63,152 nucleotides of DNA from a virus (taxonomy: Duplodnaviria > Caudoviricetes), in IMG/VR virus record IMGVR_UViG_3300009506_000026, positions 1-63,152 of that record. One strand, 5' to 3'. The notes beneath the pieces were generated by a model. The model ran no database searches. It was not told the origin of the DNA and worked only from the letters and a program-made list of their open reading frames with translations. The translations under genes were made by a program, and so were the position numbers. Positions 28,482-60,675 of the stretch are shown here, piece after piece (position 1 is the stretch's first letter; each line of letters opens with the position of its first letter).

Positions 28482-28921
28482 TTTCCAATCTCCTTAGATA
28501 AATGTTCAATCGATTTCTTATTGGAATTCATTGTTTCCATTGCTCCCCTCATGAATTCCTCTGTTTTTCCCATATGCCTGTTAATACTTTTGATCAAATC
28601 AAGATATAGACCCTCTGTTTTTTCTTCCCACTTAACCCTCCTTTCCTCGGCTTTGTCCAATTGAATACACAAAGCCGTTATTTTTTTCTCCACGCTACCC
28701 ATACTGTTCGAAAGTGGACAAGTTGCTCGAAATCCCGCACACCTCTCTTCCGAGACAATCTTTTGTGAGGTTAATTTATCCATGTCCTTCTCCAAACCTT
28801 CGATTTTTTCTTTCTGCGCCCCCTTATCTTCATTTATCCTTTTTGAAAATTGGTACCAAGTGAATATCAGACCGCATGCCGTTAAGAAAAATCCGAATAT
28901 TGTTTCCCATCCAAGTGTCAT
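28478..28921 (-). CDS. Single-TM coiled-coil protein (holin/anti-holin-like)
   Basis: N-terminal TM followed by a coiled coil; ATGA overlap. Confidence 0.6.
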   Translation of the reverse strand: MTLGWETIFGFFLTACGLIFTWYQFSKRINEDKGAQKEKIEGLEKDMDKLTSQKIVSEERCAGFRATCPLSNSMGSVEKKITALCIQLDKAEERRVKWEEKTEGLYLDLIKSINRHMGKTEEFMRGAMETMNSNKKSIEHLSKEIGK

Positions 28922-29859
28922 CCATCTTCTCCTTTCCATTTCCTTGCCCACTCTTGAATAGAGATTTTCTGCTGATTGGCGATATGCTTTCTGTGTGGTT
29001 GGCACTTGGCAATGACATCCTGATAGATGTTCTTTAAAGCTTCGGGTTTCCCCTTCATGTTTTCAGAGAACAATCGACATAAATCCTCTCCTCCATAACA
29101 ATATGTTGCAATTAATTTATTCCTTAAATAATCGTCGTACACATAACAATACCCCCTTTTCTCCCCATGATGAAAAAGAGGCTCCGTAGGGAATATCCAT
29201 TTCTTCATTCCCATCACTGCCAATGAAAAATTCAAAAATTGCTCACCCCCAGAATAAATTCCAAGCTCAGGAGGCCATCCCCCCAATTTATTGTAAACCT
29301 CCCTTGACATCATTACTCCACAACAACTCATACAAGGGACCTCATAGGGAGATTCATTCCTCCTGTACCCCGTAAAAGAATAATCTAAATGTCCTTTACT
29401 TAGATTGTTTACCAACTTGTAAATCAATATATGTGATTCTAAGATTTTGTATGTTAAGGGCAAATGAAGGGTACCATTCAGCTCCCTATGATTCTCTTTA
29501 TAAAATTGGAACATATTAAATAGAGAGTCTCGGGAGATAATACAATGGGCATCACAGAACCAAAGAAAATCCCCCGTGGAATGCTTCACTCCTAAATTCT
29601 TTGACTGCCAATGTGACAGCTTCTTTTCATACTTCAAATATTTCAACCAGGGATTGATCCTACCAGAACAGGCATTCACTGCCTCTCCACTTTTGTCATT
29701 TTCATATCCTAACGATTTTACCTGCTCGCAATAATTATCCACTGCAATGACTTCAAAATCAACTCTGCCCCTTAGTTCCTGTGCAATGTTCTGTAGGGTA
29801 AAAAGGACTTGTGGATACTCATTACAAAAAGGAATTATCACGGACAACTTTTCATTCAT
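28918..29859 (-). CDS. GT-A glycosyltransferase with polypeptide GalNAc-transferase (GT27)-like motifs
   Basis: LSVIIPFCNE, FCDAHC (DxH), VPCMSCCGVMMSREVYNKLGGW, GIYSGGEQFLNF. Confidence 0.85.
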   Translation of the reverse strand: MNEKLSVIIPFCNEYPQVLFTLQNIAQELRGRVDFEVIAVDNYCEQVKSLGYENDKSGEAVNACSGRINPWLKYLKYEKKLSHWQSKNLGVKHSTGDFLWFCDAHCIISRDSLFNMFQFYKENHRELNGTLHLPLTYKILESHILIYKLVNNLSKGHLDYSFTGYRRNESPYEVPCMSCCGVMMSREVYNKLGGWPPELGIYSGGEQFLNFSLAVMGMKKWIFPTEPLFHHGEKRGYCYVYDDYLRNKLIATYCYGGEDLCRLFSENMKGKPEALKNIYQDVIAKCQPHRKHIANQQKISIQEWARKWKGEDG

Positions 29860-29862
29860 CCT

Positions 29863-30750
29863 TCACCTCACCAATGATTGCAAATATTTGTCGAAATCCC
29901 TCGCCGACCTCTCTATATTATATCCTATTCTGAATTTATTCCTCCCTGATTTTCTTACTTTATTTAGGATTGTTCCATTCGATAATATCCAATTTAGTTT
30001 ATCAACAAAATCAAATTGAGTGTATCCAATATAATCCTTACCTTCGATTAAATTAGCATAAGGAAAAAGCTTAGTTTCATCTAAACTTTTGTGGGCAAAC
30101 AGAAGGGCTCCCGTTCTTAAAACATCGGTATACATATCGGAACTGGGACCAAATCCAGGACATCCTATAACCACCTTTGTTCTTCTCAATTCTTGTAAAT
30201 ATTGTTCCCTCTGAATCCTCCCATGCACAATCAAATCATTGGTAAAGTTTTTGAATAGTAATTCTTTAACGCTTTCCCGAATATAGTGTGGGTATTTCGG
30301 TTTCGAAAAACTAAAAATGGAACACCGGAAATTGATTACAATCTCCCTATCAAATTCATCCTCATAGATTTCCTCCCCCGAATTGATTGAAACAATAAAG
30401 GCTACAGGGTAATTATTCAGATAAAACTTAGTTGGAGCGCATTTAATTCGTGGAAATAAATTCCCAAATCGTAGGAATCCATTCTGATTCCCATTATCAT
30501 GAGAATCAAGCAATACTTTGGGTCCTTCAAAATCTAAAAACAGCTTGTCGGTCTTTTCAATAACCCACGGCTTGAATTTGTACCCCATAGTCTCATTAGG
30601 AAATGTATTATATACCAACACATCTCCTAAATTTTCTGTGTATTCTGCTAAAGGATTCCATATGATCGTATGCTTATCCTCTAATAAAGACAGCATTTTT
30701 TGGAAGTATTTTTGATTACTGCCCTTAGAAAAACAATATTGAATTTTCAT
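29863..30750 (-). CDS. GT-B-like glycosyltransferase (CgeB/Glyco_trans_1_2-like)
   Basis: YLQELRRTKVVIGCPGFG, DVLRTGALL, DFVDKLNWIL. Confidence 0.7.
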   Translation of the reverse strand: MKIQYCFSKGSNQKYFQKMLSLLEDKHTIIWNPLAEYTENLGDVLVYNTFPNETMGYKFKPWVIEKTDKLFLDFEGPKVLLDSHDNGNQNGFLRFGNLFPRIKCAPTKFYLNNYPVAFIVSINSGEEIYEDEFDREIVINFRCSIFSFSKPKYPHYIRESVKELLFKNFTNDLIVHGRIQREQYLQELRRTKVVIGCPGFGPSSDMYTDVLRTGALLFAHKSLDETKLFPYANLIEGKDYIGYTQFDFVDKLNWILSNGTILNKVRKSGRNKFRIGYNIERSARDFDKYLQSLVR

Positions 30751-31478
30751 TCCTCCCTCTCCCATTCTAAAAAGAAAGCTTTGCTACCTTTCTTCTTGAA
30801 TTTATAATCTGCCATCCATCTCCTCCCTAAATCTTGAATATAATTGGGTGAGTTCGGTTTTCCAAAGACACCGAACTTCCATTTTAATACCTCATCTAGT
30901 AGGGGGGATCCTTTCTCATGAAATTGTTTCTCGGGATTAAAATCTTCTCTAAGATAGGGGAGACAGTTCCTAACAAAATCATGTCTAATTAAGGAGGGAT
31001 GTCCACAAAATCCTACTCCCCCAATCAGCTCCTTCGGACATTCGAAATAATCCCCATTCCAGGGGAAAAACTTATCCCAATTTTTCATTTTATCCTCTGA
31101 GGATTTGAACTGGGGGAGTCGAAGGGAAGCAAGTTCAGGATATTTCTCCATTAAAAATATCATTTTCTTTAAACTCACAAATACTTTTAATTCCCAATCA
31201 TCCTCCAAATGAAAAATAAATTCTGATTCCGTTTGTTCCCATGTCCATTTAAAGGCGGAGGCAAAATTGGGTTTCTCCGCTATTCTATATTTGCCCATGT
31301 GGGGGTAAAACATTTCAACCACATCGATTACTCTTTGTGGATGACTTGTCCCTATAGGATCTACATTTACAATAGGACGAATAGTTGCTTGCCCAAATAA
31401 ATTATTCTCAAAGGAATATAAAGTTCGATACAGAATCTCCGGGCGACAACAAGCCGTTATGGTTACATCGATGATCAT
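30747..31478 (-). CDS. GT-A glycosyltransferase
   Basis: ITACCRPEIL..TLYSF, FIFHLEDDW, GHPSL. Confidence 0.8.
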   Translation of the reverse strand: MIIDVTITACCRPEILYRTLYSFENNLFGQATIRPIVNVDPIGTSHPQRVIDVVEMFYPHMGKYRIAEKPNFASAFKWTWEQTESEFIFHLEDDWELKVFVSLKKMIFLMEKYPELASLRLPQFKSSEDKMKNWDKFFPWNGDYFECPKELIGGVGFCGHPSLIRHDFVRNCLPYLREDFNPEKQFHEKGSPLLDEVLKWKFGVFGKPNSPNYIQDLGRRWMADYKFKKKGSKAFFLEWEREE

Positions 31479-31479
31479 T

Positions 31480-32091
31480 TCAGGAGTACCTCCTTTTCTG
31501 AAAATACAATAGATTGTCATAAAAGGCTTTTATGCCTGGTTTTTTCTTCCATGGTTCCCACGCTCTTCGGATTCTATCTACCGGATTGGAATTGAACTCA
31601 TAAGATTTATAATGGAACTTTTCTATCCAATATTCCGCTGGTTGACAATTTACATGGTAATGTCCCCCTTGTCCTGGGGGAGCGGCGGACAAAAGCAATT
31701 TATCGGAAAAGGCGATCAGATTGTCCAATAAGATATCGGAATACTCTTCCTCAATATGCTCCAATACTTCAAAACAAGTGCAAAGATCGAACCTCCCTGG
31801 GAACATATTTTGCACGTCTATGGGGCTTCTTAAATCCATATAAACAATGAATCTGGTCATGGCAAACTGTGAGGCATGTTTCGATCCTTCAAGACCCCAA
31901 GCAACTATCTCCCATTTCTTCCGAAAATGATCCACCAAATCGCCTACCGCACATCCTACATCCATAAGAGTTGTAGGATTAAACTCTTCCATTATTGCAC
32001 GACAGACGTGCTCCGCTCTCCAGGCAAGACGGGTATGAATTTTGAAAAAGTGTGGTTTGTAAATTTCTTCAAGTGGTTTTCTATTCTCCAT
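31480..32091 (-). CDS. Class I SAM methyltransferase
   Basis: MDVGCAVG, FDLCTCFEVLEHI, SAAPPGQGGHYHVNCQ. Confidence 0.88.
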   Translation of the reverse strand: MENRKPLEEIYKPHFFKIHTRLAWRAEHVCRAIMEEFNPTTLMDVGCAVGDLVDHFRKKWEIVAWGLEGSKHASQFAMTRFIVYMDLRSPIDVQNMFPGRFDLCTCFEVLEHIEEEYSDILLDNLIAFSDKLLLSAAPPGQGGHYHVNCQPAEYWIEKFHYKSYEFNSNPVDRIRRAWEPWKKKPGIKAFYDNLLYFQKRRYS

Positions 32092-33867: not shown

Positions 33868-33877
33868 GTCCCCTTTA

Positions 33878-34615: not shown

Positions 34616-34626
34616 CTTCGGTTTCC

Positions 34627-35331
34627 TTAAAAAATTGTTCTTGGATCTTTACCTCGTTCTCTCCAATAGTTAATCCAAATACCCCTTTCTTTCTCTAATA
34701 CAATCTTATATTGCAGCAAGTTGGATACTTGATTGCGCCCTGATTTATGATAGATAAAACAGTCCTTCAATCTAATCCAACTATAATTGCCCGAGGTTCT
34801 CAAATGATAAGAAATCCAATTGTCACCGAAGAATATTCTAAACTTTCTAACAGGAATCGGGGGAATGCGAAAAGCAACTTCCCTTCGCATTAAAATCACC
34901 CCGGCATTTCCCTTCCCTGTTGGTAGTGCCTCCCCAGATAAATCATCCAAAGAAGCACACTTTGGCAATGGTAGTTCCTCTACTACCGTAGCCGTAACAC
35001 ACCCTGTCGTCAATCCCGCATATCTTACCCCTGTGGCCCTTACCGACTTCTCCAAAAGACATTTGCATAATCGCAAATCATCCGCAAGTATCCCTACAAA
35101 GTCGAATCTCATTCCAAGACAGATGTTCCAAACTGCATTGGTACCAATATTACCCTCGTTGGGCTTGTTCACTCGAAATTGAAAATCGTATTTTATGTCC
35201 CTCCCTTCAAATTTCCCCCCATTATCCACCAATAGAACATAATCAGGTTTCATTGTCTGTTTATTCAAATCGCCAAGGACATTTAAAACTTGAGTAGGTC
35301 TCATGCAGGGGATTACAAGTCCTATACTCAT
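34627..35331 (-). CDS. GT2 glycosyltransferase
   Basis: LVIPC, LLVDNG, GILADD, FFGDNW. Confidence 0.85.
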   Translation of the reverse strand: MSIGLVIPCMRPTQVLNVLGDLNKQTMKPDYVLLVDNGGKFEGRDIKYDFQFRVNKPNEGNIGTNAVWNICLGMRFDFVGILADDLRLCKCLLEKSVRATGVRYAGLTTGCVTATVVEELPLPKCASLDDLSGEALPTGKGNAGVILMRREVAFRIPPIPVRKFRIFFGDNWISYHLRTSGNYSWIRLKDCFIYHKSGRNQVSNLLQYKIVLEKERGIWINYWRERGKDPRTIF

Positions 35332-36059
35332 AGCTTAAAATCCTCGATTCTCTGTGAAAGTTTATTATGTCGGAACAAATTTGCATGGATTTGTGCCATG
35401 CGAAATACCTTTAATCTGTCTCTCCAAATTGTCTCCGCTATTTTTTCGTTGTAAACATAGTGCTTCCTTGAAGGAAGCATCATTTGTAATACCTCACTTT
35501 TAACAATATGGGGATTAAATACATAGGTATTTTTTACCTCTTCAAAGATCGTTTGTGAGGTATCCAATAAACCCTTTTGATCCCTTTTATAGTCCCAATA
35601 GAAGGGAACTTCTGGCTTAACCAGGTCCTTATGCTTCCCATAAATAACAGTATCATAATTAAAATATTTGCATTCCTTCCATGATCGAAGTCGTATGCAT
35701 CCAAAATCTTTGAACACCTCAAAGAACTTAAAAATAAAATTAAGATAATAGGTCAAAGGCTCGCAACAAATAAAATCATCCTCCATATACATACAAAAAG
35801 GGGTGTCTTCTTTCAGACAGGCCCTCATTACTTGGACGTGTCCCCAGCCCCCTCCTCTATTTTCCTCAAACGAAATTACCTCTTTGAATTGTCCCTCATA
35901 TTTTGCTACCACATCCAATGTATCTTTTTCCACCGACTGAATACAAATTTTAAAGATAAAAGTGTCCAGACAATCTCTATTCAAATGGAAGAACGAGTCC
36001 AAAGTCTTATCCAATATTTGTGGTCGTTTGCACGTAAGAAAACCTACCGCAATTTTCAT
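35328..36059 (-). CDS. GT-A glycosyltransferase
   Basis: LTCKRPQILDKTLDSF, ENRGG, MYMEDDF. Confidence 0.8.
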   Translation of the reverse strand: MKIAVGFLTCKRPQILDKTLDSFFHLNRDCLDTFIFKICIQSVEKDTLDVVAKYEGQFKEVISFEENRGGGWGHVQVMRACLKEDTPFCMYMEDDFICCEPLTYYLNFIFKFFEVFKDFGCIRLRSWKECKYFNYDTVIYGKHKDLVKPEVPFYWDYKRDQKGLLDTSQTIFEEVKNTYVFNPHIVKSEVLQMMLPSRKHYVYNEKIAETIWRDRLKVFRMAQIHANLFRHNKLSQRIEDFKL

Positions 36060-36997
36060 AAAAAATTCCTATGCCTTAATGGAGTGAATCTTTTGTCCCT
36101 AACCTTCTCATACACTTTAGCATAATTTATATATCGACAGGATCCACAGATTCTAAGATCGGGTTTAAATTGATTCCTTCTTGCCCAAATATCTTCCAAG
36201 CTTTCCTCGTTCACATCCCCTATAATAAAATCAGGATTTCCTCTATGAACACAACAATAATAAACCTTGCCATTCGCTCCCACCTGACCTATTAGACCTG
36301 CGATTTGACAAGGGAGATTGGAGTCCAATTCTACCGAATATCTATCAACCTTAAATAACCCCTCATCTGAAATGTTCCTCATTGTACTTTCAATTCCAGA
36401 GATTTTCCAAGCAGGTTTTATTTGTGCATAAGATACTCCCAATGATTCCGCTAGTTCTCTAAACCCCTCAACCTCCTGTTTATTTTTCTCCGTGACTACC
36501 ATACTTAACCCTACATCTGTTTTCCCTACACACATTCTTACATTCTCTATAACCTCATCGAAAACATTGTTTCCTTTTATGGCTTCGTATGTTTTAGGAG
36601 TAGCCGCATCCAAACTAATCCTAATAAATTGAAACTTGTCAAGCACCCCCTCCACCCGATCCAAAAATATTCCGTTTGTTATTAACCCAATTTCTAAACC
36701 TAAATCGTAAGCCGCCCAAATCATCTTCTCCGCAAAAGGATTTGTTAATGGTTCTCCCCCACCCGACAATGTAATGGATTTCGCTTCCATTTGGTACACT
36801 TCAAAAATGACATCACTAAATGTAGACCATGTCATTACCGAACGATCCTTGTTTAGATAATTCTTGTAATGACAAAAATAGCACCTATTCTGACAAGTAT
36901 TAGCAATGTCAATTTCACAGGTTACAAAGGGCTGTCTTTTCCCTTCTATTATCCTATCTGTTTCCTTTAAAAAATTTAGAATCTTGAAATCCATCAT
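36056..36997 (-). CDS. Radical SAM / SPASM-twitch protein
   Basis: CQNRCYFCH, SGGGEP, ITNG, ISLDA, C..G..G.VYYCC, CGSC. Confidence 0.9.
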   Translation of the reverse strand: MMDFKILNFLKETDRIIEGKRQPFVTCEIDIANTCQNRCYFCHYKNYLNKDRSVMTWSTFSDVIFEVYQMEAKSITLSGGGEPLTNPFAEKMIWAAYDLGLEIGLITNGIFLDRVEGVLDKFQFIRISLDAATPKTYEAIKGNNVFDEVIENVRMCVGKTDVGLSMVVTEKNKQEVEGFRELAESLGVSYAQIKPAWKISGIESTMRNISDEGLFKVDRYSVELDSNLPCQIAGLIGQVGANGKVYYCCVHRGNPDFIIGDVNEESLEDIWARRNQFKPDLRICGSCRYINYAKVYEKVRDKRFTPLRHRNFL

Positions 36998-37778
36998 CTT
37001 CCCACTCCACGTAATTTTTTCCTTTATGTGAATAATATCGAAATCTAATACCTGCTCTCCTCAACAAGTTTCTAAATCTTTCGGTGTCTCCCGTCACAGG
37101 TCCCACTATTTTACGGTCATACACGCTGAAAAAAGTATCCCCTATTCTAAAAATAGGACCATCTTCCTTAAATTCAAAATCCTTTTTGAATGTTCTCCTT
37201 AAATGAGTAACTAATAAATTAAAATTGACCTCCTCTTTGGGATAAGCATTTTCTTTTTTTATCTCAACTGGGATTCCCGCGGCAAAACAGAAATCAGGTA
37301 AATCTTTATTTACTAAGGACATTGCGGCTACCATCACTCCCTTTCCAATAGTGACCCCAGGATTCACCCAAGCATGTGGCAGCCAGGAAAAATGTCGTAT
37401 CTCTACAGGAGCAAATTGAAAGGGGTATCCCCAATCATAGGGAGCATAAGCACCATGTGTCCAAATATTGGACTGATGTCCTATTCCCACCTCATGCCAT
37501 ATTTTCACTCTACAAGCGGTATTGATATGAGCAAATCGTCCTAAATGCAAAAAGTCCCCTGCGATCAATTCCGATGTTTCCTCGAAACAACTACCCCCTC
37601 CTATCCAACTATATTCATGAATCCAAGCCTCTCTACCGATTATTACCGATCTACCCTCGATCTTAGCATAATCGTTAATCACACTACCATCACCAATTTC
37701 AAAATGTTCGGTGACATTGATCGTGGCTTTCGGACTTATTCTAACATTTTCTCCCTGTTGCCATCTCATAATAGCCAC
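36954..37778 (-). CDS. Hexapeptide-repeat (left-handed beta-helix) O-acyltransferase
   Basis: IWTHG, VNPGVTIGKG, AAMSLVNKD, AAGIPV. Confidence 0.85.
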   Translation of the reverse strand: MAIMRWQQGENVRISPKATINVTEHFEIGDGSVINDYAKIEGRSVIIGREAWIHEYSWIGGGSCFEETSELIAGDFLHLGRFAHINTACRVKIWHEVGIGHQSNIWTHGAYAPYDWGYPFQFAPVEIRHFSWLPHAWVNPGVTIGKGVMVAAMSLVNKDLPDFCFAAGIPVEIKKENAYPKEEVNFNLLVTHLRRTFKKDFEFKEDGPIFRIGDTFFSVYDRKIVGPVTGDTERFRNLLRRAGIRFRYYSHKGKNYVEWEDDGFQDSKFFKGNR

Positions 37779-38392
37779 CTCTTTACTTCAAAGGCTTCGG
37801 CGTATTTACATCCACATTCTGATCCTCTGACCCGAGCTTTTGCTTCTATCGCTTCTATGGATCTTTGATGTGGAAACTCCCTCATCTCACACACAATTTT
37901 TTCCAAAGTGAGTAATTTTTTGTTCATAAATTTTTCAATGTTCACATATAGATTAGGAGCAAATGTTGTGGAACCCCCTAAATATTCACAACATAAAAGA
38001 CCTACCGGTCTTCCATAACACCTTGCTTGCACCAATGCACTCTTAAATACAATCCTATGATCCTCATTTATATCATGCTCAGAATGAGTAATAATTAAAT
38101 CAAATTTCAGCCCCAACGATTCAAATCTTTTATTTAATTCCAACTGACCATATTTATCAAATTCCATTGTAGGGATATTCAAAAAGAAACAATTACTCAA
38201 TGGAACACCTAAACACGTGGCAATCTTTTCCGATTCCTGTCTATAACTTACTCCTGGTCTTCCATGAACAACAATCCCATTATTTGCCCAAACAATAAAT
38301 ACTTGATGATTCTCCGAAATAAATTTGGCTATAGTTCCCCCACAATACAAAATCTCATCATCCACATGAGCCACATATACCACGATGTTCAT
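37766..38392 (-). CDS. PIG-L/LmbE family N-acetylhexosamine deacetylase
   Basis: AHVDDEILYCGGT, THSEHDINEDH, YAEAF. Confidence 0.9.
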   Translation of the reverse strand: MNIVVYVAHVDDEILYCGGTIAKFISENHQVFIVWANNGIVVHGRPGVSYRQESEKIATCLGVPLSNCFFLNIPTMEFDKYGQLELNKRFESLGLKFDLIITHSEHDINEDHRIVFKSALVQARCYGRPVGLLCCEYLGGSTTFAPNLYVNIEKFMNKKLLTLEKIVCEMREFPHQRSIEAIEAKARVRGSECGCKYAEAFEVKRWLL

Positions 38393-38970
38393 TCCACCAA
38401 ACCTTTTCCAATATCGTAATACATTACACAAAACCTACCAAGCTTATCCAATGTGTATTGCTTTATATTCAAATGTGAATAATTATAGTTGCTCATAATC
38501 GTTCCTATCCTACGAGCAATCACCCCTTTGTGAAAATCATCCACAACCAAATAAGTTCCCGTATTAACAAATTGGGATAAAACTGTTTCCAAATACTTAT
38601 GTCTATGCCCAGTAACATCGATATCATAAAAGATCAGATCAAAGGCTTTATTGGCTCCTTTTATCTCTGGCCAAATAAAAAAACCTTCGCTTCCCAATTC
38701 ATGCTTCTTAGAGAAAGCTTTACTTTTCTGTAGCCATCCTTTATTGGCATCCACAGACCAAATATCTGTATCCAAATTATTCCTCTTTTTATACAATCGA
38801 AAGGCACAACTGCTTATTCCACTACCAAGATCCAAGATACTCTCCGCTTGTTTTCTCCTGAACATTCTCATCAAAAATAAACAGCATTCTAAGGATGCCG
38901 CCATTCCTGATATCGTACTTGTATATTCTTCATGAATCGCCGTAAACTCTTCCTTCAATTGTTCATCCAT
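38389..38970 (-). CDS. Class I SAM methyltransferase
   Basis: ILDLGSGISS, SVDANKGW, FDLIFYD, VVDD. Confidence 0.8.
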   Translation of the reverse strand: MDEQLKEEFTAIHEEYTSTISGMAASLECCLFLMRMFRRKQAESILDLGSGISSCAFRLYKKRNNLDTDIWSVDANKGWLQKSKAFSKKHELGSEGFFIWPEIKGANKAFDLIFYDIDVTGHRHKYLETVLSQFVNTGTYLVVDDFHKGVIARRIGTIMSNYNYSHLNIKQYTLDKLGRFCVMYYDIGKGLVE

Positions 38971-40105: not shown

Positions 40106-40839
40106 GTATTTTTTATTACTCTTTCTTCTAATTTTCTGTAATCCAACAAAGGTAAAGGCGCTTTTATTCTATTTTTATGATTATAGATTCTACCACAAAT
40201 GAACCGATGGTCTCTTAGTTTTATTTTCTCTGGGTCTCCCAACTCTAAAAAATTAGCAATCCTGTTAAAATTCCCTTTATCCTTTATCATATTCGCTGAA
40301 ATGTAGATCGCCTTCCCACCCCCTCTCTCCACCTCTCTTTTATATTTTCTCATACGATGCTCAATCTCCAAAGTATACCAATAACAAAGCTCGTAAGGAG
40401 TTCTTCTTTTCCAATCACCCAGTCTTGTTACATTCTCAGGGTGAGAAGGCGATATCGCAAATATATTTCCCCTTTCAGTCGTCCCTGGAATTAGATCCAA
40501 TGATAAAAAACTTTTTGCTATCTTCCTTCGATTTCTCTTGATCAATAATAAATCAGGCACATAACCTAAATCCAATAAGGGGTAGAAAAAATACTTACAA
40601 AATCCATGACTCATTTCCATGTAAATTTCTCTCCCCTCTACCAAATTCTCAATGGAGGGAAGTTTCTCTGTCCTTAAAAAGGTTCTGAAATCATCAAAAG
40701 TTTTGTTTTCATGAGAGAAGTGGATAAAAGAGGGGAAGGGCTCGTGGTAGGAAGCGACTTTTCGAAAAAGACCAAAAAGAATAGACAAGAATCTTGTCCC
40801 TGTTCTCCCAGCCGTTACTGTAAAGATCATTCTTTTCAC
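40093..40839 (-). CDS. Sulfotransferase-like P-loop protein
   Basis: TAGRTGTRFL (PAPS 5'-binding-like), SYHEP, LIKRN..IAKSF. Confidence 0.7.
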   Translation of the reverse strand: MKRMIFTVTAGRTGTRFLSILFGLFRKVASYHEPFPSFIHFSHENKTFDDFRTFLRTEKLPSIENLVEGREIYMEMSHGFCKYFFYPLLDLGYVPDLLLIKRNRRKIAKSFLSLDLIPGTTERGNIFAISPSHPENVTRLGDWKRRTPYELCYWYTLEIEHRMRKYKREVERGGGKAIYISANMIKDKGNFNRIANFLELGDPEKIKLRDHRFICGRIYNHKNRIKAPLPLLDYRKLEERVIKNTWMK

Positions 40840-50400: not shown

Positions 50401-51497
50401 TCTTGAAAACTGCCAGGACCAGTAGTACCAAAAGCTTTTGATAGTACCGCAACTGCTTGGGCTCCTCTAAGTCCAAACAATCTATACGCCTTTGCCATAT
50501 CTACTGTTCCCGCTTCCGATTCCTGCATAACACGACTTAAATTTTCCATTGCTTTTTGATAACCAACAAGTCGTGGATTAATCTCATTCAAATCAATTCC
50601 TAAAGATCGAAATTCCTCCCTCAAATTCCTACTTGGAGACAACAATCGAGATATTACCTGCCGTAACCCTGTACCAATAGTGCTTGCTCTTAGCCCATTA
50701 TTAGCAAGAACCCCCATCGAAGCCGCGGCTTCCTCTATATCAATTCCCGCCTGAGCAGATGCGGCACCCACATAATTAAACGCGGTCCTTAATTTATCAA
50801 TTGTGAGTTTACTTCTATTGACGGCGTTCGCCATCACATCAGAAACTCTTGAGGACTCAACAGTGCTGAGATTCCAAGCTCGAATTGATGTGGTAACCAG
50901 ATCCGCCACATCCGTCATATCTCCTAAAGTGCCTGTAGCCAAATTAGCCACCGCCGACATAGCCTGCATTGACTCAGTGGCGCTGAAACCTGCCTGACCT
51001 AACAAGACCATCCCATCCGCTACCTCAGCAGTTGAAAACTTAGTATCCTTCGCAACCTGTTTAATCGTTTCTCCCATGCCCATTACTTCGGCATCCGTGG
51101 CACGGGTGATGGCTTGCAAATTCTTCAAAGCCTGATCGAAGTCAACGATTTCTTTGGCTCCCGCCGCAAACGCCCTCATCAACCCATATATACCACTTGT
51201 TGCTATGCCGTAGGTTGCAACTGTTTTTAACGCCAAGGACATGCGGTTGACAACACCCGTGACCCTCGTGGCGGCCCTGGCATACTGTCCTAACGCCGTA
51301 TGTCCTCTTTGAATGGCTTGAGTGGCACCCTGTACGTTGCGCCCAGCTTGAGCAAAGGCTTGTGATCCCCTGCCCATCCCCTGCAACTGTTGATTGAAGT
51401 TTAAAACGGCTTGCCGGGCACGTTGGATACCATTAAGGAGAGCAGTAATATCCGCAGTAAAAATTGTCCCGAGATTAAGAGTCCTTCCGTTAGCCAC
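47469..51497 (-). CDS. Tape measure protein (TP901 family)
   Basis: TKFSTAEVADGM, AVANLATGT, GLRASTIGTGLR; long coiled coil; GIDKIAAWLSHGEYVM. Confidence 0.93.
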   Translation of the reverse strand: MANGRTLNLGTIFTADITALLNGIQRARQAVLNFNQQLQGMGRGSQAFAQAGRNVQGATQAIQRGHTALGQYARAATRVTGVVNRMSLALKTVATYGIATSGIYGLMRAFAAGAKEIVDFDQALKNLQAITRATDAEVMGMGETIKQVAKDTKFSTAEVADGMVLLGQAGFSATESMQAMSAVANLATGTLGDMTDVADLVTTSIRAWNLSTVESSRVSDVMANAVNRSKLTIDKLRTAFNYVGAASAQAGIDIEEAAASMGVLANNGLRASTIGTGLRQVISRLLSPSRNLREEFRSLGIDLNEINPRLVGYQKAMENLSRVMQESEAGTVDMAKAYRLFGLRGAQAVAVLSKAFGTTGPGSFQDMLNKVYETGSAADMASTQMEGLGVKLKNLADRAKLIAVAFGEAGVTDSLKVLVDVLRSLASVIAQFISSSIGKFLTSITVWVASLTLLGVSFTKLGQLLLKLGPIIVKFANDLKKALIVMNLIQGSSIAMTASVARLVTIMRSAAAKIGLLFAAIGAGIAVFNWFRGSTQRAIDVTIKLDQKMGQTTQTLALYAEKFDKLAEKYKKGENVQRQHESTIKRVEAAYSKLSGQLDLNSEKAEENAQKIREALSVELETKLQNNIKTLELYRKKLEEVAFWQGLLNRVSKGWDALLTILDVKYRNFIDNIGKNAEVLGKAFEIIIPKGMLDILRDDFKLIGEYISEVSEYYKKLGRDTKEYEKTQQEMNDQWVATGTTLYESKLSFEEIRVALIRLGATKDQVELVITALEALKQSSKEIAKNFKENLSDMPEVFRELYDQLSAESQVALIDSLANMDKEIEALKKKAEDYNIEEEKIAKNIMAIRAKTLVDFIEKNEKEKMSLKERADWEIKILDSLAKQVEKTYQERTKGLESVYEKEKELAENNASKLKDIQKDYTGALLRESQARKEELIAIEQAKNDVLEDLARESSRKQAEAWIDLAKDYKTELKSIITESKSKFRELSRDLKKFRKEHSDNLREIRQRDFSDEQKYNDDISRINKLMNEARAKHDYDTYKQAYDLAEGLAREVKDSSGETVRDLRSTSDEAESYMKRIANEIEALYKNQREATKKQAQDAQSDIEKLDRLIDAYGKKIDDVSRKELVLQTEQALQDLDRTYQLVDKFQEKWDQIESKEITLKVKITQEGGVPAIEGGEEPQLGSGEYIRTDEGMAEGGYTLDLIRRLKKKQRQTRKYGSGGSVIGARGIDKIAAWLSHGEYVMRSEAVKKYGTNFMSSINSMTVPVESATKVIKARMGGLVKSLAPRYEMQPEFATPSPINRTYNITVSPQFLTGDRNSMRKLATEVKKAIENVDKGLGKNG

Positions 51498-52264: not shown

Positions 52265-52906
52265 TTACGCAGTGGTTGTGGTAGTCGTAGTGGTTGTGGT
52301 AGTTGTGAAGGTCGAGCCGTCATTCCAAACAATTTGTCCCAACGGCTTGTCATCCCAACACGCATTTCCACCACTAATTTCCGAATCAGCCCTTTTAGCC
52401 TCAATTCGAATTGCAACCGCAGCAGGTTCCTCAGGAGCAAAGTCCATCTCAATTGAGGCGGAAACCTGTGCCCTGGGGAAGATAATGTTCATGGTATTGG
52501 TACCATCAGGATAAGTATAAATTGCTTCCATCCTGATATACTCCGCGGATGCCAAAGTACCAAGAGCAATTTTCCCTGTGTGTGCTGCGGAATATGCAGC
52601 ATCAGTGGGATCCAAACCACGAGCAAGCGCCATGTTCTTTGGAGTGATTTCTTTGAAAGCACATTCCAAAGCAGCCTGCTCACGAAGTGGGAAAACAGCA
52701 TCTTCCAACATAGGAAAACCTGATTCCAACTTGAAGAACTCCGTATTACCTACAAAACGAGTGTTTGCAAGTGCTCCAATAGAATCTGTGGAGGACAACC
52801 ATGGAGTTTGTTTTGTCAGATACGTGGCAGAAGCTGCCACTCTGACCTGAGCCAAACCCAATGCTACTGTAGTGGTATCTCTTGTTACAGGACCAGTTCT
52901 TGCCAT
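52265..52906 (-). CDS. Major tail tube protein with C-terminal T12-Ala tail
   Basis: Position; IGAL..T.F, EIT..N.ALA.G, IIFPRAQV pattern; ends STFTTTTTTTTTTTTA. Confidence 0.8.
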   Translation of the reverse strand: MARTGPVTRDTTTVALGLAQVRVAASATYLTKQTPWLSSTDSIGALANTRFVGNTEFFKLESGFPMLEDAVFPLREQAALECAFKEITPKNMALARGLDPTDAAYSAAHTGKIALGTLASAEYIRMEAIYTYPDGTNTMNIIFPRAQVSASIEMDFAPEEPAAVAIRIEAKRADSEISGGNACWDDKPLGQIVWNDGSTFTTTTTTTTTTTTA

Positions 52907-55140: not shown

Positions 55141-55313
55141 GTTACTGTCCTTGGATCCACAGATGTTGATTCGCCCTTAGGAAGCCCATTCTTTAAAATA
55201 CCACAATAACCACATTTAGGGCAAACGCAAAGGGTTTCTCCACTTGTATTTTTTTGGTCTTCCACCACAAACTCAGTCTGACAAACAGGACAAATAATAA
55301 TTAGTCCATTCAT
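55137..55313 (-). CDS. 58-aa zinc-ribbon protein (not in track)
   Basis: ATGA overlaps at both ends; CPVC..CPKCG. Confidence 0.65.
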   Translation of the reverse strand: MNGLIIICPVCQTEFVVEDQKNTSGETLCVCPKCGYCGILKNGLPKGESTSVDPRTVT

Positions 55314-55621
55314 ATTAAATCCTGAACTTTAAAGAAAACCATGTATTCCTTATAATTGTTACCACTACTTTGTACCTTACAAATTACATAGTAACCTTCT
55401 CCGTCGGTTCCATTTTGAACATAGATTCTTACAATTGAACCACTATAGGTACACTTGTTGGAATCTAATATAGTAGTGGAAACATCTACACCGTCTTCGT
55501 CATAGGCTTTAAAAGTTACATCGGAAATAGTTTCTTCGTCTAGCCATGTAGAAATATCAATATCTATATAATATTTTTCCCATGTAGTTTTAGGTTCAGT
55601 TACGGAAAAGCTTTCCCCCAT
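55310..55621 (-). CDS. Fibre-to-virion adaptor-like protein
   Basis: YYIDIDISTWL..ETIS..IYVQNGTDGEGYYVICKVQSS pattern of phage fibre adaptors. Confidence 0.6.
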   Translation of the reverse strand: MGESFSVTEPKTTWEKYYIDIDISTWLDEETISDVTFKAYDEDGVDVSTTILDSNKCTYSGSIVRIYVQNGTDGEGYYVICKVQSSGNNYKEYMVFFKVQDLI

Positions 55622-55633
55622 TGTAATCTCCTT

Positions 55634-57823
55634 TCATGCAACAAATCTATTCCTGGCATTCTCCGCAGTAAAAATTGCCCTCGCATTTTCCCCCACAAAT
55701 TCATTTCTATTAGTTTTTCCTTCAAACTCGGTATGTGGTTCTATCGACCAATCCATAGTAACGGTAGTTGTTGTGGTTGAACTACTGGTCGAAGAGGTCG
55801 AGGAACTCGTTGTTGAAGCTGAGGTGCTTGTGGTAGAGGAAGTTGAAGCAAGCTGTGTTACTGTTGTTGTGGTCGTTGAACTACTTGTGGTTGTCGAGGA
55901 AGTTGTTATGGTACTACTCGTCGTTGTGGACAGAGTTGTTGAGGTCGAACTGGACGACGAGGATGAAGTCGAAGTTGAGGAAGTTGTTGTAGTTAAAGTT
56001 GAACTGGATGACGAGGAAGAACTTGAGGATGAGGTTGTTGTGGTCTCACTGGTACTAGTAGAAGTTGAAACAGTTGAACTCGAGGTCGAGGAACCTGTTG
56101 TCGAAGTCGAAGTTGAGGAAGAAGTGCTTGAAGTAGTGGTTGTTGTAGCCGAACTCGAGGTAGTCGTCTCGGTTGAGGAAGTTGAGGTAGATGAAGTTGT
56201 TGTGGTTTCCGTCGTGGACGTACTCGAGGACGTCGAGGTTGAGGTCGTTGAACTAGTAGAAGAACTGGTAGAAGAACTAGTAGAAGAACTGGATGAGGTC
56301 GAACTAGATGAGGTTGTAGTGCTCTGAGTCGTGGCTCCTGGCTCGGTAGTTGAAGTACTTACGGTGGAACTAGTCGTGGTGCTCTGAGTTGTGGTACTTA
56401 TTGTGGAACTTGTCGAACTCAAAGTTGAGGTTGAAGTCTCAGTAGTCGTGGTGCTTGTAGAAGTAGTGGATGAAGTACTTGAACTAGTGGAGGAAGATGT
56501 TGAGGTAGAGGAAGAACTTGTGGTACTTGAAGATGACGAGGTCGTGGTCTCAGTAGTCGTGGTGCTTGTAGAACTCGAGGTGCTGGACGATGTTGTAGAA
56601 GCCGAACTCGAGGTAGTTGATAAAGTAGAAGAGGTTGTAGTGGTTAAAGTGGTAGTAGTTGCAGAGGAGCTTGTAGTTGTTGTAGAGGAAGAGGAGGTCT
56701 CTCCCGGCTCCGTCGTGCTGGTTGTTGTCTCAGTACTGGTTGTGGTTGACGAAGTTCCCGAAGTGCTTGTGGTCGAAGTATGTGAGGTCGAAGTTGTGGA
56801 ACTCGACGTGGTAGACAAAGTTGAGGATGTGGAGGCTGTGGAGCTTGTGGTTGAAAAAGTTGAAGATGTGGTGCTAGTTAGCGTCGAACTAGATGTGGTT
56901 GTGGAAGAGGAGCTTGTGGTTGAACTAGTCGAACTAAAGGAAGTTGAAGTTGTTGTGGTTGAGGTTGATGTTGTCGTACTGGACGTGGACGACGAAGTAG
57001 AGGAGCTTGTGGTTGAAGTTGTCGTACTGGACGTGGACGATGAAGTAGAGGAACTGGTAGTGGACAGAGTGGAGGACGTGGTCGAAAATGAAGAAGTAGT
57101 TGTTGAGGACTGGGTGGTTGTGGAAACCGTTGAACTTGAAGTCGAAAGAGTGGAACTTGTAGTGGACAAAGTTGAGGTTGTGGTTGAGGTGCCCGAAGTT
57201 GATGTTGTCGTACTGGACGTGGACGATGAAGTAGAGGAGCTTGTGGTTGAAACAGAGGTGCTTGAACTAGAGGATGAACTTGTAGTGGTACTACAAGATG
57301 TTGTGCTATACGTTGAACTGGTAGTTGAAGCTGTGGAACTCGAGGTGCTACAAGATGTTGTGGTTGAGGTGGAGGATGAGGTGGTACTAGACGACGAAGT
57401 AGAGGAACTTGTGGTTACTGTTGTAGTTGTGGTTGTAGTGCTGGAAGAACTTGTTTGTGGAGCAGCAACCGTAACATCTACAGGTGTAGTTGTATACTCC
57501 GTTAAATCATCCTCAATTAATTTTATTCTAACTTGAAACGAACCAGTAGTACCATCATTATAAACAGTTAGCTGTTGTTCATCCGTTGTTTGAAGGCCCG
57601 TTATGGGATTGGTTTCGGAGGAAATATTAAGGGCGCCAGAGGAACCAAGACTTGTCCAAGAACCTACTCCTTGGTCCCACTCAAAATACATATCACCCGA
57701 TTCTGCCCAACCACCACTGCCCGAAGTGGTAATCGCACCCCCCATCAAAAAACTGCCACTGGGTTCCAGTTCCGGATCCACCGTGGGGCGGGGCATTGTT
57801 ACGCCGGTGATATTAGTGGACAC
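55634..57823 (-). CDS. Mucin-like Ser/Thr-rich virion protein (729 aa)
   Basis: About 123 aa beta-rich N-terminus, ~566 aa S/T tract (55757-57454), short C-terminal segment; GAGGT RBS before GTG. Confidence 0.85.
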   Translation of the reverse strand: MSTNITGVTMPRPTVDPELEPSGSFLMGGAITTSGSGGWAESGDMYFEWDQGVGSWTSLGSSGALNISSETNPITGLQTTDEQQLTVYNDGTTGSFQVRIKLIEDDLTEYTTTPVDVTVAAPQTSSSSTTTTTTTVTTSSSTSSSSTTSSSTSTTTSCSTSSSTASTTSSTYSTTSCSTTTSSSSSSSTSVSTTSSSTSSSTSSTTTSTSGTSTTTSTLSTTSSTLSTSSSTVSTTTQSSTTTSSFSTTSSTLSTTSSSTSSSTSSTTTSTTSSSTSSSTSSTTTSTSTTTTSTSFSSTSSTTSSSSTTTSSSTLTSTTSSTFSTTSSTASTSSTLSTTSSSTTSTSHTSTTSTSGTSSTTTSTETTTSTTEPGETSSSSTTTTSSSATTTTLTTTTSSTLSTTSSSASTTSSSTSSSTSTTTTETTTSSSSSTTSSSSTSTSSSTSSSTSSTTSTSTTTTETSTSTLSSTSSTISTTTQSTTTSSTVSTSTTEPGATTQSTTTSSSSTSSSSSTSSSTSSSTSSTTSTSTSSSTSTTETTTTSSTSTSSTETTTSSSATTTTTSSTSSSTSTSTTGSSTSSSTVSTSTSTSETTTTSSSSSSSSSSSTLTTTTSSTSTSSSSSSSTSTTLSTTTSSTITTSSTTTSSSTTTTTVTQLASTSSTTSTSASTTSSSTSSTSSSTTTTTVTMDWSIEPHTEFEGKTNRNEFVGENARAIFTAENARNRFVA
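56970..57250 (-). repeat. Three near-identical internal repeats in the mucin-like gene
   Basis: GTTGTCGTACTGGACGTGGACGAYGAAGTAGAGGA at about 56970, 57018 and 57204. Confidence 0.8.
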
Positions 57824-57868
57824 TTCTTACCTCGGACATGACACGGCACCCACCGTGTAAGAAAAACT

Positions 57869-58543
57869 CTAAGCTGTGGTTGTGGTGGTAGATGTGGTGG
57901 TGCTTGTAGTAGTGGAAGTAGTCGTCCACTGCCGAGTATCTTCACCCACATCTAAGACATTCATCCCAGAATATCTTCTTTTCTTAATCGTTTCCACCCT
58001 TAGAAACGATCCATCTGAAAGCCTGATTCTATCATTTATTTGAATATCGATAGATTCAGGGAGATACATTTCATGGTTTTCTATCCCAAGAAGACCAATT
58101 TCCTCATCAGTATCCAAACTATTCCCGTATAAGGGGGTAGTCAGTAGAGCATCTACAGAAGAATCGATTAGGGTCCAAATGGTCCTTGATCGATACGAAG
58201 CAGGATCATCTATCTCAGAGGGCCTGAGAATCGAAATAACTTCATTTGTCTTGTAAAGAACGACATCATATTGAATCACGGCATCCTCGAACATTCTTGC
58301 CGTGCGGTTCATCACGTAGAATTTGTCCGAGGTTGTAACAAACTGGATCAGATCACCCCCCACCATTTCAGTATTATAGGCAGCCGCAGCCTCTAAGAAG
58401 AACTCACGTATAAAGGGTTTGGTGACTTGAGCATTTGGCTTGTAAGCCAAATATTCTCCCGTCACATTTCCGGAATCTCGGATAATAATAAAAGAGGTCC
58501 CAACCTCAGGAAGGACCTCGGCTATGTCGGGCCCTATTGTCAA
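57869..58543 (-). CDS. Head-closure/neck protein with C-terminal Thr/Ser tail
   Basis: Position; DIQINDRI..FLRVETI; ends TTTSTTTSTTTSTTTTTA. Confidence 0.65.
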   Translation of the reverse strand: MTIGPDIAEVLPEVGTSFIIIRDSGNVTGEYLAYKPNAQVTKPFIREFFLEAAAAYNTEMVGGDLIQFVTTSDKFYVMNRTARMFEDAVIQYDVVLYKTNEVISILRPSEIDDPASYRSRTIWTLIDSSVDALLTTPLYGNSLDTDEEIGLLGIENHEMYLPESIDIQINDRIRLSDGSFLRVETIKKRRYSGMNVLDVGEDTRQWTTTSTTTSTTTSTTTTTA

Positions 58544-59001: not shown

Positions 59002-59002
59002 A

Positions 59003-59326
59003 CTACCTCCTGATCAGCTTGGGCTTATCTCTGTTTGTTGGCTCCTTTAAAACGGGTCTTTGAACAACTAAATTCTCCACAAGTGGTTGAACTCCAGGAA
59101 CAATCTTCGATTTCATGTCTGGGGTTTGAAAGGTAGGGGAGAAGTGAATCCCACCTGGGGAAGTCAACTTCTCCCTCCCGTACTCAACAACCTCAATGTT
59201 CGAATTCCCTTCAAAAATATCAGGTAATAGAATGGAAGGAAAGGGACGACGAAGTACCGTCCCTTCTTCCCATACCTGACTCCCAGCCTTAATTGTTCTT
59301 CTCAGTCTGATAGCTTCGATTCTCAT
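59003..59326 (-). CDS. Hypothetical capsid-adjacent protein
   Basis: GGAGG RBS; ends DKPKLIRR. Confidence 0.65.
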   Translation of the reverse strand: MRIEAIRLRRTIKAGSQVWEEGTVLRRPFPSILLPDIFEGNSNIEVVEYGREKLTSPGGIHFSPTFQTPDMKSKIVPGVQPLVENLVVQRPVLKEPTNRDKPKLIRR

Positions 59327-59346
59327 GATTGTAATCCTCCGCCTAC

Positions 59347-60675
59347 TTAGGCTGTGGTAGTTGTCGTGCTGCTGGACGAAGTTGTAGTGGTTGAGGTCAG
59401 AGTGTCAGTGTAAAGCGACTTGACATCCAACGTGTAGATAGCATCCCTATTTTTGATAATAGGAAGACCTTTATCCTGAACACGAATCCAAACACCTTCA
59501 GGATCCCACTCGTACTTATCGTCCACCTTCTGTCCCCATTGTCGAGGCAAGGAGAAGGGAGCTTCCATGTACTTAGCAATTGGCATTCCATCAACTGTGG
59601 ATGCCATCATCAGGAACTTGTCATTGGGAATGTAATACTCAGGCATGAAGACCTGATCCTCCCCTGCCTTGTAAGACGAAGCAGGAGGATAGGATAGTTG
59701 GATTCTATTGGTTTCCGTCTCCACTGACTTGATATAGCAGTACTCATAGGTTCCTTCAGATACATCCAAGAACCTTACTTTCCCACCAGCCTTAAAATCA
59801 GAAACATCATCCAGTGTTATCCAAGTAGTTGATCCCCCCGTTACCGCTGCAACCAACCAAGCTTTGACCTCATACATTTCATCATAGACGATGAAGTTCG
59901 GGATATTCAAGATTCTTCCCAAGACCTGAACATTCACCCCCACAATTTCATGCAGGTTGCCCCCGTACAAATTCCCAGGGCCACCAGGGCCACCAAAATA
60001 GCTGTTATACAGAAGTTGACGGATAGTGGTATCATTCCCAATGTATTTCAGCACATTACTATTGCACATGGCAACATCGACGACTCCACCACAGTCCTCT
60101 TTGATCTTGGTCTTGCCGTCCTGAATATCACTGAGAATGTTTTTACTTCCACCGTTGTCCCAGTTATAAGCGGAAGCCAAAGTCACACGATGATCGGAGG
60201 GAATACCATAGTCGATAGTAACTTTGTACCCACCTTTCACCGCATAGGAGAAACCATTATTGAAAAGCATTTGGACAAACATCCATTCTTTTCTACGGTC
60301 ACTCCTGTTTTTTAATCCCGCCAGTTCCTCAGCCAATTTTTGCTCCGCAGCATGGTAATCCGCAGTCGTTCCGGGTTTTCGAAGATTGTTAAGGAATTCC
60401 TCATCAAAATACATCTTCTCTTTCCAGAAAGCCGCCGTGGCTGAATGCTGTGCGATTCCATGGGGAGCCGTTACCTGAGCAGGTGCCCCAGGAGCGGCGA
60501 ACGGGGTCATTCCACGCCCTCCCCTTTGGCTTTCCCATTTAATATCGGCAGATGCGGCTTGACTTGCCGTGAACCGATTCATAAAGAACAATTCCGGTGG
60601 AGTCATGAAAGTTCGCATGAAATCTTCCAGGACTTCCAACCTAAGAATAGGAATATCAGCAGTTCCTCTTGGCAT
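59347..60675 (-). CDS. Major capsid protein (lambda gpE-like) with inserted domain and C-terminal Ser/Thr tail
   Basis: MTPFAAPGAPA, DRRKEWM, IDYGIP, W..NILSDI, WDPEGVWIRV; ends TSTTTTSSSSTTTTTA. Confidence 0.88.
   Translation of the reverse strand: MPRGTADIPILRLEVLEDFMRTFMTPPELFFMNRFTASQAASADIKWESQRGGRGMTPFAAPGAPAQVTAPHGIAQHSATAAFWKEKMYFDEEFLNNLRKPGTTADYHAAEQKLAEELAGLKNRSDRRKEWMFVQMLFNNGFSYAVKGGYKVTIDYGIPSDHRVTLASAYNWDNGGSKNILSDIQDGKTKIKEDCGGVVDVAMCNSNVLKYIGNDTTIRQLLYNSYFGGPGGPGNLYGGNLHEIVGVNVQVLGRILNIPNFIVYDEMYEVKAWLVAAVTGGSTTWITLDDVSDFKAGGKVRFLDVSEGTYEYCYIKSVETETNRIQLSYPPASSYKAGEDQVFMPEYYIPNDKFLMMASTVDGMPIAKYMEAPFSLPRQWGQKVDDKYEWDPEGVWIRVQDKGLPIIKNRDAIYTLDVKSLYTDTLTSTTTTSSSSTTTTTA

Follow-up and report, generated by a model that had tools for sequence, protein, structure and literature searches.

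A GT27-like enzyme cassette beside Ser/Thr-tagged virion proteins: a candidate phage-encoded O-glycosylation system in an uncultured siphophage

In eukaryotes, mucin-type O-glycosylation is started by the GT27 UDP-GalNAc:polypeptide N-acetylgalactosaminyltransferases (ppGalNAc-Ts). In Gram-positive bacteria, the long Ser-rich tracts of serine-rich repeat adhesins are O-glycosylated stepwise in the cytoplasm by soluble glycosyltransferases (GTs), namely GtfA/GtfB and later GalT1, and giant viruses such as the chloroviruses and mimivirus glycosylate their capsids and fibrils with enzymes that they encode themselves. Virion O-glycosylation of the mycobacteriophages Che8, Corndog, and Myrna was reportedly described by Freeman et al. 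in 2023. Mycobacteriophages use GTs of their own to attach glycans at the C-termini of capsid and tail tube proteins (PMC12619734, PMC12363180, PMC13445384). Experimental virion glycosylation by phage enzymes is known only from a few mycobacteriophages in the literature reached. Here we analyzed the window, a stretch of 63,152 nucleotides that is the entire linear IMG/VR viral record IMGVR_UViG_3300009506_000026, estimated to be 74% complete. Its source is an uncultured siphophage, and the window covers most of the genome. Five of its virion proteins carry tracts of serine and threonine (Ser/Thr tags), and the same strand carries a cluster of GTs, the last of which is GT27-like. The GT27-like gene and the tags occur together within and across phage lineages, and it is probable that the phage O-glycosylates these tags with enzymes of its own.

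All genes between 27.7 and 63 kb lie on the minus strand and run from the head, neck, and tail genes through the enzyme cluster to three small lysis-like open reading frames (ORFs), while the plus strand of bases 1-27.6 kb carries replication genes and a 7-deazaguanine DNA-modification set. The tagged virion proteins, together with the adaptor and tape measure genes, are as follows.

59347..60675, minus strand: major capsid protein (MCP), 442 amino acids (aa), PF03864 E 1.8e-28, phrog_29 E 1.4e-42, ending in a Ser/Thr tail (residues 423-442, about 59350-59409)
57869..58543, minus strand: connector/neck-region protein of 224 aa, ending in a Ser/Thr tail (residues 205-224, about 57872-57931)
55634..57823, minus strand: 729-aa mucin-like protein; Ser/Thr tract at residues 122-690 (about 55754-57460)
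55310..55621, minus strand: homologue of the Gp77-like fibre-tail adaptor, PF23148 E 1.1e-7, adjoining the 729-aa mucin-like protein
52265..52906, minus strand: candidate tail tube protein of 213 aa, ending in a poly-Thr tail (residues 197-213, about 52268-52318)
47469..51497, minus strand: tape measure protein, PF10145 E 2.9e-39, phrog_1533 E 7e-59, which fixes the tail module
42270..46736, minus strand: tail-tip protein of 1488 aa, with residues 1130-1331 (about 42744-43349) forming a Ser/Thr stalk

A six-frame scan of all ORFs 60 aa or longer looked for stretches of 12 residues in which Ser/Thr made up 83% or more. Tracts were found in 5 of the 194 ORFs of the window, all five of them in the virion module, which agrees with the five acceptor-bearing virion proteins named in the original prediction made from the sequence. 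When the scan was repeated on 195 ORFs, shuffling of residues within ORFs flagged a mean of 1.08 ORFs and a maximum of 2. The DNA of the tracts forms no clean tandem repeat, so that a simple artefact of slippage or assembly does not account for the tracts. In the C-terminal tracts Thr outweighs Ser (58% T, 28% S). The two long tracts had been given lengths of 566 aa (neck-region protein) and 198 aa (tail tip); both tracts stand, with their limits now set at residues 122-690 and 1130-1331.

MCP relatives that lack the tail stop at the equivalent of residue about 418. Homologues of the 57869-58543 protein were present in 20/20 relatives examined, and the tail was found in 9/9 members of the tailed clade and in 0/11 others. 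This protein gave no family match and no PDB match by profile, which leaves the earlier label of head-closure protein tentative. The candidate tail tube gene precedes two small ORFs and then the tape measure gene. Its AlphaFold2 (AF2) model was of low confidence, with a predicted local distance difference test (pLDDT) score of 58, the top Foldseek matches in PDB were tail tubes, and a PDB profile search with its profile gave nothing usable; the tube label is therefore given because of gene order, with the fold matches of a poor model as support. The 729-aa protein consists of a 121-aa N-terminal domain, the tract, and a 39-aa C-terminal end, with S+T making up 75%, and it matched no family in Pfam or PHROG. 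The homologue of the 1488-aa protein in related contigs G001/G008 also carries Ser/Thr tracts.

Two further observations concern the tail proteins. The mucin-like stalk of the tail-tip protein bears a globular C-terminal domain of about 157 aa (42270-42743, minus strand), which matched no Pfam family and is a candidate receptor-binding module. The MCP rows of relatives G003 and G004 are identical on the tree, yet the large tail protein (34217-37063 in G003, the first ORF in G004) differs in the length of its first Ser/Thr tract (73 and 99 residues, respectively), and this gap reflects either tract-length polymorphism or an assembly effect.

The last GT of the cluster was characterized by profile searches and structure prediction.

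28918..29859, minus strand: soluble GT27-like (ppGalNAc-T-like) GT-A enzyme, 313 aa, PF00535 E 3e-13

The best PDB sequence match of this enzyme was GalNAc-T10 (E 2.3e-4), in an alignment that pairs FCDAHC with FLDSHC and YSGGEQ with WGGEQ. A profile of 25 sequences found 9 PDB sequences at E ≤0.01, of which 7 were ppGalNAc-Ts, and the C-terminal half of the profile (166-284) was matched by ppGalNAc-Ts only. Residues D103, H105, G204, G205, and E206 were invariant in the 25 sequences and make up the DxH and GGE motifs, the first of which we take to be the metal-binding motif of GT27 and the second of which belongs to its Gal/GalNAc-T motif. The AF2 model reached a pLDDT of 94.3, and the Foldseek PDB matches listed (ranks 1-49) were all ppGalNAc-Ts, with E from 2.8e-16, query TM-scores (TMq) of 0.63-0.76, and 305-333 aligned columns. 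The alignment to the GT27 catalytic domain covers the whole 313-aa protein, the targets having 436-546 residues. Pfam found GT2 only and no ricin-type lectin domain, and a Kyte-Doolittle scan found no hydrophobic segment, thus no type II anchor. The ppGalNAc-T-like motifs noticed in the original prediction are thus borne out by the fold and the invariant DxH and GGE residues. As modelled, the protein is GT27-like in its catalytic domain and is not a canonical GT27 member. We propose that it is an initiating polypeptide O-glycosyltransferase.

The other enzymes of the cluster are listed in gene order; the counts give the number of loci with a homologue among the 67 viral loci carrying the GT27-like gene, which are described below.

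40930..42210, minus strand: GT1/GT4-type (GT4-like) glycosyltransferase, PF00534 E 7.2e-7, PF13439, phrog_2170; core, 56/67 loci
40093..40839, minus strand: sulfotransferase-like protein, ESM Atlas features 0.96-0.98, TM-score (TM) 0.74-0.86 to sulfotransferase clusters, no Pfam match; accessory, 3/67 loci
38963..40105, minus strand: GT-B-type glycosyltransferase, profile matching the GT-B C-terminal domains of WbaZ-1 (E 2.1e-5) and Alr3699; core, 37/67 loci
38389..38970, minus strand: S-adenosylmethionine (SAM) methyltransferase, Methyltransf_31/24 E 7e-5, below the Pfam cut-off; accessory, 3/67 loci
37766..38431, minus strand: PIG-L family de-N-acetylase, PF02585 E 6e-17; accessory, 3/67 loci
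36954..37778, minus strand: hexapeptide-repeat acyltransferase, PF00132, WcaF-like match E 1.6e-12; accessory, 2/67 loci
36056..36997, minus strand: radical SAM/SPASM enzyme, PF04055 E 6e-15, PF13186 E 2.8e-8; accessory, 7/67 loci
35328..36059, minus strand: second member of the divergent GT2-like type, hhalign 93.9% and E 1.6e-7 against the 30747-31520 family, GT25 sub-threshold at E 0.013
34627..35331, minus strand: GT2-like (GT-A) glycosyltransferase, profile matching chondroitin synthase at E 1.4e-8 and GalT1 (5hea) at E 5.7e-5; core, 20/67 loci
31480..32091, minus strand: SAM methyltransferase, PF13489 E 7.8e-8; core, 41/67 loci
30747..31520, minus strand: divergent GT2-like protein, invariant E-x-D in an LEDDW motif, weak TarP match at E 0.0029; core, 40/67 loci
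29863..30765, minus strand: Glyco_trans_1_2-like glycosyltransferase, ESM Atlas 0.97, TM 0.70-0.77 to PF13524 clusters; accessory, 5/67 loci

Support for these assignments is graded, being at Pfam level for the GT2, GT1/GT4, methyltransferase, PIG-L, hexapeptide, and radical SAM plus SPASM enzymes and coming from homologue profiles or the ESM Atlas for the rest. At that graded confidence the forecast of about seven GTs holds, and the sulfotransferase-like protein, two methyltransferases, deacetylase, acyltransferase, and radical SAM enzyme that had been named with them are likewise supported by Pfam or the ESM Atlas. PF00535 was found in 9/120 relatives of the divergent GT2-like family (30747-31520) among the matches listed; in hhalign comparisons this family gave nothing against the GT27-like profile and a weak match (6%) to the GT2-like profile. 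A Pfam search of the unlabelled enzymes to E 10 added nothing beyond the sub-threshold GT25 match. The enzymes had been placed directly after the structural genes on the same strand; the strand is as stated, but the run is not unbroken, since four unrelated genes (32092-34615, minus strand) split it. The Kyte-Doolittle scan found no transmembrane segment in any cluster enzyme and no multi-span protein between 28.9 and 42.2 kb, and the hydrophobicity scan together with Pfam found no flippase, polymerase, oligosaccharyltransferase, or polyprenyl-phosphate priming GT in the cluster. Soluble enzymes that work with no flippase, polymerase, or oligosaccharyltransferase are what is required for glycosylating particles built in the cytoplasm.

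The co-occurrence of tails and enzymes was analyzed within the capsid family, in 60 MCP-related viral loci (genomes and contigs are numbered with G and loci with L). Of their MCPs, 20 ended in a Ser/Thr tail, 35 had none, and 5 were truncated. In 21 contigs, the tails on the MCP, the 57869 homologue, and the tube were either all present (10) or all absent (11). Among the tailed contigs, G003 and G006, and in part G001/G008, were long enough to reach the enzyme region; tblastn found homologues of the GT27-like, GT4-like, GT-B, GT2-like, and divergent GT2-like enzymes and of the methyltransferase in G003 and G006 and some of these in G001/G008. The tail-less genomes gave no cassette homologue by tblastn except for a weak methyltransferase match. 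Co-occurrence of the tails with the GT cluster among relatives had been named as a computational check in the original prediction, and it was found: in genomes at least 90% complete, all three tails were present in 6/6 that have the GT27-like gene (G006, G030, G031, G032, G038, G040) and in 0/3 that do not (G020, G021, G022).

The tail-less relatives have other enzymes of the GT2 and GT1 types, whose genes often lie within the head/neck module. For this reason a GT beside virion genes is by itself no evidence for glycosylation of tags, and we rejected the presence of any glycosyltransferase as the co-occurrence variable; the specific cassette alone discriminates. In the clade without Ser/Thr tails (G018-G024; loci L029-L049, L057, and L061), the last residues of the MCP are ..FDLDEY, and the 57869 homologue has an acidic end with Tyr (..DDEVYDD, ..EDYEEEY). 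The GT2/GT1 genes within its head/neck module include, in G020, a 1069-aa multi-GT2 ORF beside the head genes, and this clade may hold a different pairing of tag and enzyme.

The GT27-like family comprises 554 metagenome protein relatives at E ≤0.001, and the gene was located in 67 viral loci, the contigs being 10-277 kb long. These loci reach well beyond the capsid family, as a search of 41 contigs for the MCP found a close homologue in 5 and a distant one in 4. An ORF with a Ser/Thr tract lay within 10 kb of the GT27-like gene in 42/67 loci. Thirteen of the 25 negative loci, and 3 positive ones, were fetched whole, and the other 12 were scored within 10 kb only. Nine of those 13 turned positive, which brings the total to at least 51/67 loci with Ser/Thr-tract ORFs. 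Among the rest, G055 has Thr tails shorter than the scan threshold and G065 is a piece of the positive G040, with 100% identity. The Ser/Thr ORFs were on the same strand as the GT in 69 of 70 cases, and in a control of 36 tail-less MCP loci (395 kb) only 4 Ser/Thr ORFs were found, each of them on the strand opposite to the MCP. From the fetched contigs, 13 of 32 Ser/Thr proteins matched PHROG and 12 of these 13 were labelled tail, head, or connector, the labels being major tail protein, tail protein, head-tail adaptor, scaffold/head, and structural protein. Every Ser/Thr-tract protein with a functional label was a virion protein. The GT27-like gene thus tracks tagged virion proteins inside the MCP family as well as where the virion modules are unrelated, which supports the glycosylation reading.

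The same evidence bears on a quite unlikely alternative, in which the Ser/Thr tracts serve as hydrophilic spacers or bristles, either bare of glycan or modified by the host, and the cassette acts on host envelope polysaccharide, lipopolysaccharide, or S-layer protein, for superinfection exclusion or for keeping progeny off debris. Phage GTs that alter the host serotype are known (PMC12619734), and the GT2/GT1 genes of the tail-less relatives, as well as the fact that glycans on these virions are inferred from sequence, speak for such a role. Against it stand the tracking of tagged virion proteins by the GT27-like gene, a cluster that lacks membrane proteins altogether, flippase, polymerase, and priming transferase included, and a closest fold that is that of a polypeptide-directed enzyme. 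It is also opposed by the rarity of the gene outside viral contigs, as a scan with two peptide patterns found it on only 4 contigs of metagenome-assembled genomes (MAGs), 9-83 kb long, in the representative genomes of 185,579 species. These four contigs (L254-L257) all belong to Deltaproteobacteria/Desulfobacteraceae MAGs, and two of them are of phage-genome size (72 and 83 kb); they are a lead to the host group and are not counted as evidence.

It is very improbable that the cassette instead glycosylates phage DNA as an anti-restriction hypermodification, with the tags unrelated to it. DNA-glucosylating phage GTs are well known (PMC12619734), and a DUF1937/nucleoside deoxyribosyltransferase-like gene lies within the cluster. 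That gene, however, has no homologue in the 67 loci, and the hydroxymethyl-pyrimidine route to glycosylated DNA is mostly missing: a hydroxymethylase of the thymidylate-synthase type (PF00303) was absent from the window (74% complete) and from the 6 near-complete genomes of the MCP family, and was found in 4/18 of the GT27-like genomes searched, 3 of them above the cut-off. The window already has its separate 7-deazaguanine set for DNA modification in the replication module, and this alternative leaves the co-occurrence with the tags unexplained.

The core cassette around the GT27-like gene consists, in order of frequency, of the GT4-like enzyme, the 31480-32091 methyltransferase, the divergent GT2-like protein, the GT-B enzyme, and the GT2-like enzyme. 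In the complete genome G006 it forms one compact six-gene block at 48.3-54.3 kb. On serine-rich repeat adhesins it is GtfA that adds the first sugar, and it is conceivable, though unlikely, that the tags are glycosylated with the GT4-like enzyme (40930-42210) or another core GT adding the first sugar and the GT27-like enzyme extending the chain. The GT4-like gene directly follows the tail-tip gene and is nearly as constant a partner, being found in 56/67 loci and 14/16 whole contigs, and as a core enzyme it could equally be the initiator. However, no GtfA similarity was detected, the GT4-like profile had 0 PDB sequence matches at E 0.01, and it is the GT27-like enzyme that matches a polypeptide-directed family over its full length. 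In addition, G040 (searched over 80,000 of 80,338 bases) and G062 have the GT27-like gene and Ser/Thr-tract proteins with no detectable GT4-like homologue.

Several further points weigh against glycosylation of the tags by the phage and against initiation by the GT27-like enzyme. All of the support is comparative genomics. The GT27 likeness is at fold level, with 13-19% identity and weak sequence E-values (2e-4 to 7e-5), and the enzyme has no lectin domain. The tailed genomes form one clade on the MCP tree (one change, support 100/98), so that within the capsid family tails and cassette may simply have been co-inherited after a single evolutionary event, and the tail-less members of that family have GTs of their own beside virion genes. 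Independence comes from the other lineages, which were scored by composition threshold and PHROG labels only; there, 12 of the 25 negative loci remain negative on the 10-kb scan, G035 and G047 stay without a Ser/Thr ORF on contigs that are 59% and 35% complete, and 19/32 Ser/Thr proteins from fetched contigs have no family. The sulfotransferase-like, PIG-L, hexapeptide, and radical SAM enzymes, the second methyltransferase, and the extra GTs are each found in 2-7/67 loci, and the enzyme cluster is interrupted by the four unrelated genes.

On balance we infer that the tags are glycosylated, and the order of the enzymes, the sugars, and the biological role are put forward on the same footing. 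The late operon encodes the tagged virion proteins: C-terminal tails of 17-20 residues end the MCP, neck protein, and tail tube, the neck-region protein has its tract of about 570 aa, and the tail tip has its stalk of about 200 aa. The soluble enzymes, predicted to be cytoplasmic, are encoded downstream in this operon. The GT27-like enzyme would move the first sugar, probably an N-acetylhexosamine (HexNAc), from a UDP-sugar to Ser/Thr hydroxyls of the tags in the cytoplasm. The GT4-like, GT-B, GT2-like, and divergent GT2-like enzymes would, with the methyltransferase, extend and O-methylate the glycan, and the accessory PIG-L deacetylase, hexapeptide acyltransferase, sulfotransferase-like protein, second methyltransferase, and extra GTs may decorate it further. 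The assembled particle would then bear a glycan brush on head, neck, and tail, and the glycan layer may be densely modified and far more elaborate than in the known cases, as originally predicted, with shielding, adhesion, or mimicry of the host surface as possible roles.

A wider and more tentative proposal joins these elements. Unrelated lineages of tailed phages might exchange a mobile cassette of about six genes with, at its centre, a soluble GT27-like polypeptide O-glycosyltransferase that has no lectin domain, and their capsid, connector, tube, and fibre proteins would repeatedly have gained poly-Thr/Ser acceptor tags by which to use it. Bacterial viruses would in that case have a mucin-type O-glycosylation of their own, sister or source of the eukaryotic GT27, and this phage would have true mucin-domain fibres of 200-570 residues with glycans that are methylated, possibly sulfated, and N-deacetylated or re-acylated. 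We regard this joint claim as possible but doubtful.

The surroundings of the system were also annotated. Within the replication module (5990-12934, plus strand), the 7-deazaguanine set consists of QueD-, QueE-, FolE-, QueC/Gat-QueC-, and DpdA (tRNA-guanine transglycosylase)-like genes. Immediately upstream of the MCP gene, a 228-aa protein (60693-61379, minus strand) is the best-conserved structural protein among relatives, with 61-72% identity in the tailed clade; it has no family match and no Ser/Thr tail. The four genes at 32092-34615 (minus strand), none of which has a homologue in the 67 GT27-like loci, encode a ClpP-family protease whose signal is lipoprotein-like (..FFLSC), a metallophosphoesterase whose N-terminal region is Cys-rich, the DUF1937/nucleoside deoxyribosyltransferase-like protein, and a small Cys-rich zinc-ribbon-like ORF. 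After the last GT come the three small ORFs at 27716-29005 (minus strand), of which one encodes a coiled-coil-rich protein, one a lipoprotein-like protein, and one a membrane protein with a single span; together they resemble a lysis cassette, and their family match is limited to phrog_9990 (function unknown). In the cultured-phage collection no close relative was found, the best MCP match having 25-29% identity over about half of the protein.

If the tags are glycosylated as proposed, a different and larger virion-glycosylation system would be widespread in uncultured environmental phages, and a simple sequence rule would predict glycosylated virions, the tags being legible directly from sequence. 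Models of the phage surface would change with respect to adsorption, colloidal behaviour, resistance to proteases and grazing, and antibody recognition. Small soluble polypeptide glycosyltransferases and short portable tags would be tools for bacterial glyco-engineering, and the system would bear on the origin of mucin-type O-glycosylation.

The literature searched, which misses most subscription journals, contained no description of a phage GT27-like enzyme or of Ser/Thr-tagged virion glycosylation, and the locus was compared with the known systems nearest to it. En bloc glycosylation through Wzx/Wzy or an oligosaccharyltransferase differs from it in requiring membrane machinery, which was not found in 28.9-42.2 kb. 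The giant viruses resemble it in having multi-enzyme glycosylation machinery of their own for structural proteins, but they infect eukaryotes and draw on other GT families and other kinds of acceptor. With the serine-rich repeat adhesins it shares several soluble GTs and very long tracts, and the profile of the GT2-like 34627-35331 enzyme matches GalT1; it differs in that the GT4-like enzyme shows no GtfA/GtfB similarity, only generic PF00534 and PF13439 matches, in that there is no accessory Sec system here, and in that the substrates are virion proteins in which Thr dominates over Ser.

The likeness to CAZy GT27 lies in the GT-A catalytic fold over the whole protein, the invariant and aligned DxH and GGE(N/Q) motifs, and the association with dense Ser/Thr acceptor tracts, whereas the phage protein, at 313 aa and 13-19% identity, lacks the lectin domain, signal anchor, and transmembrane segment and is predicted to be cytoplasmic rather than in the Golgi. 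As far as sequence comparison reaches, the system here is analogous to Che8 glycosylation and not detectably related to it: Che8 gp108-110 gave a best BLASTP E of 0.30 against all window proteins and no phmmer match at E 10. Both have phage-encoded GTs whose genes lie outside the core structural block. In Che8 the glycans are on the C-termini of capsid and tube, whereas here acceptor-like tails are known from the genes alone. Neither the Che8 MCP (..KTGS) nor the Che8 tube (..SDGS) ends in a Ser/Thr run, in contrast to the 17-20-residue tails and two tracts of 200-570 residues found here, and where Che8 has three GTs, this locus has seven GT-like genes together with modifying enzymes.

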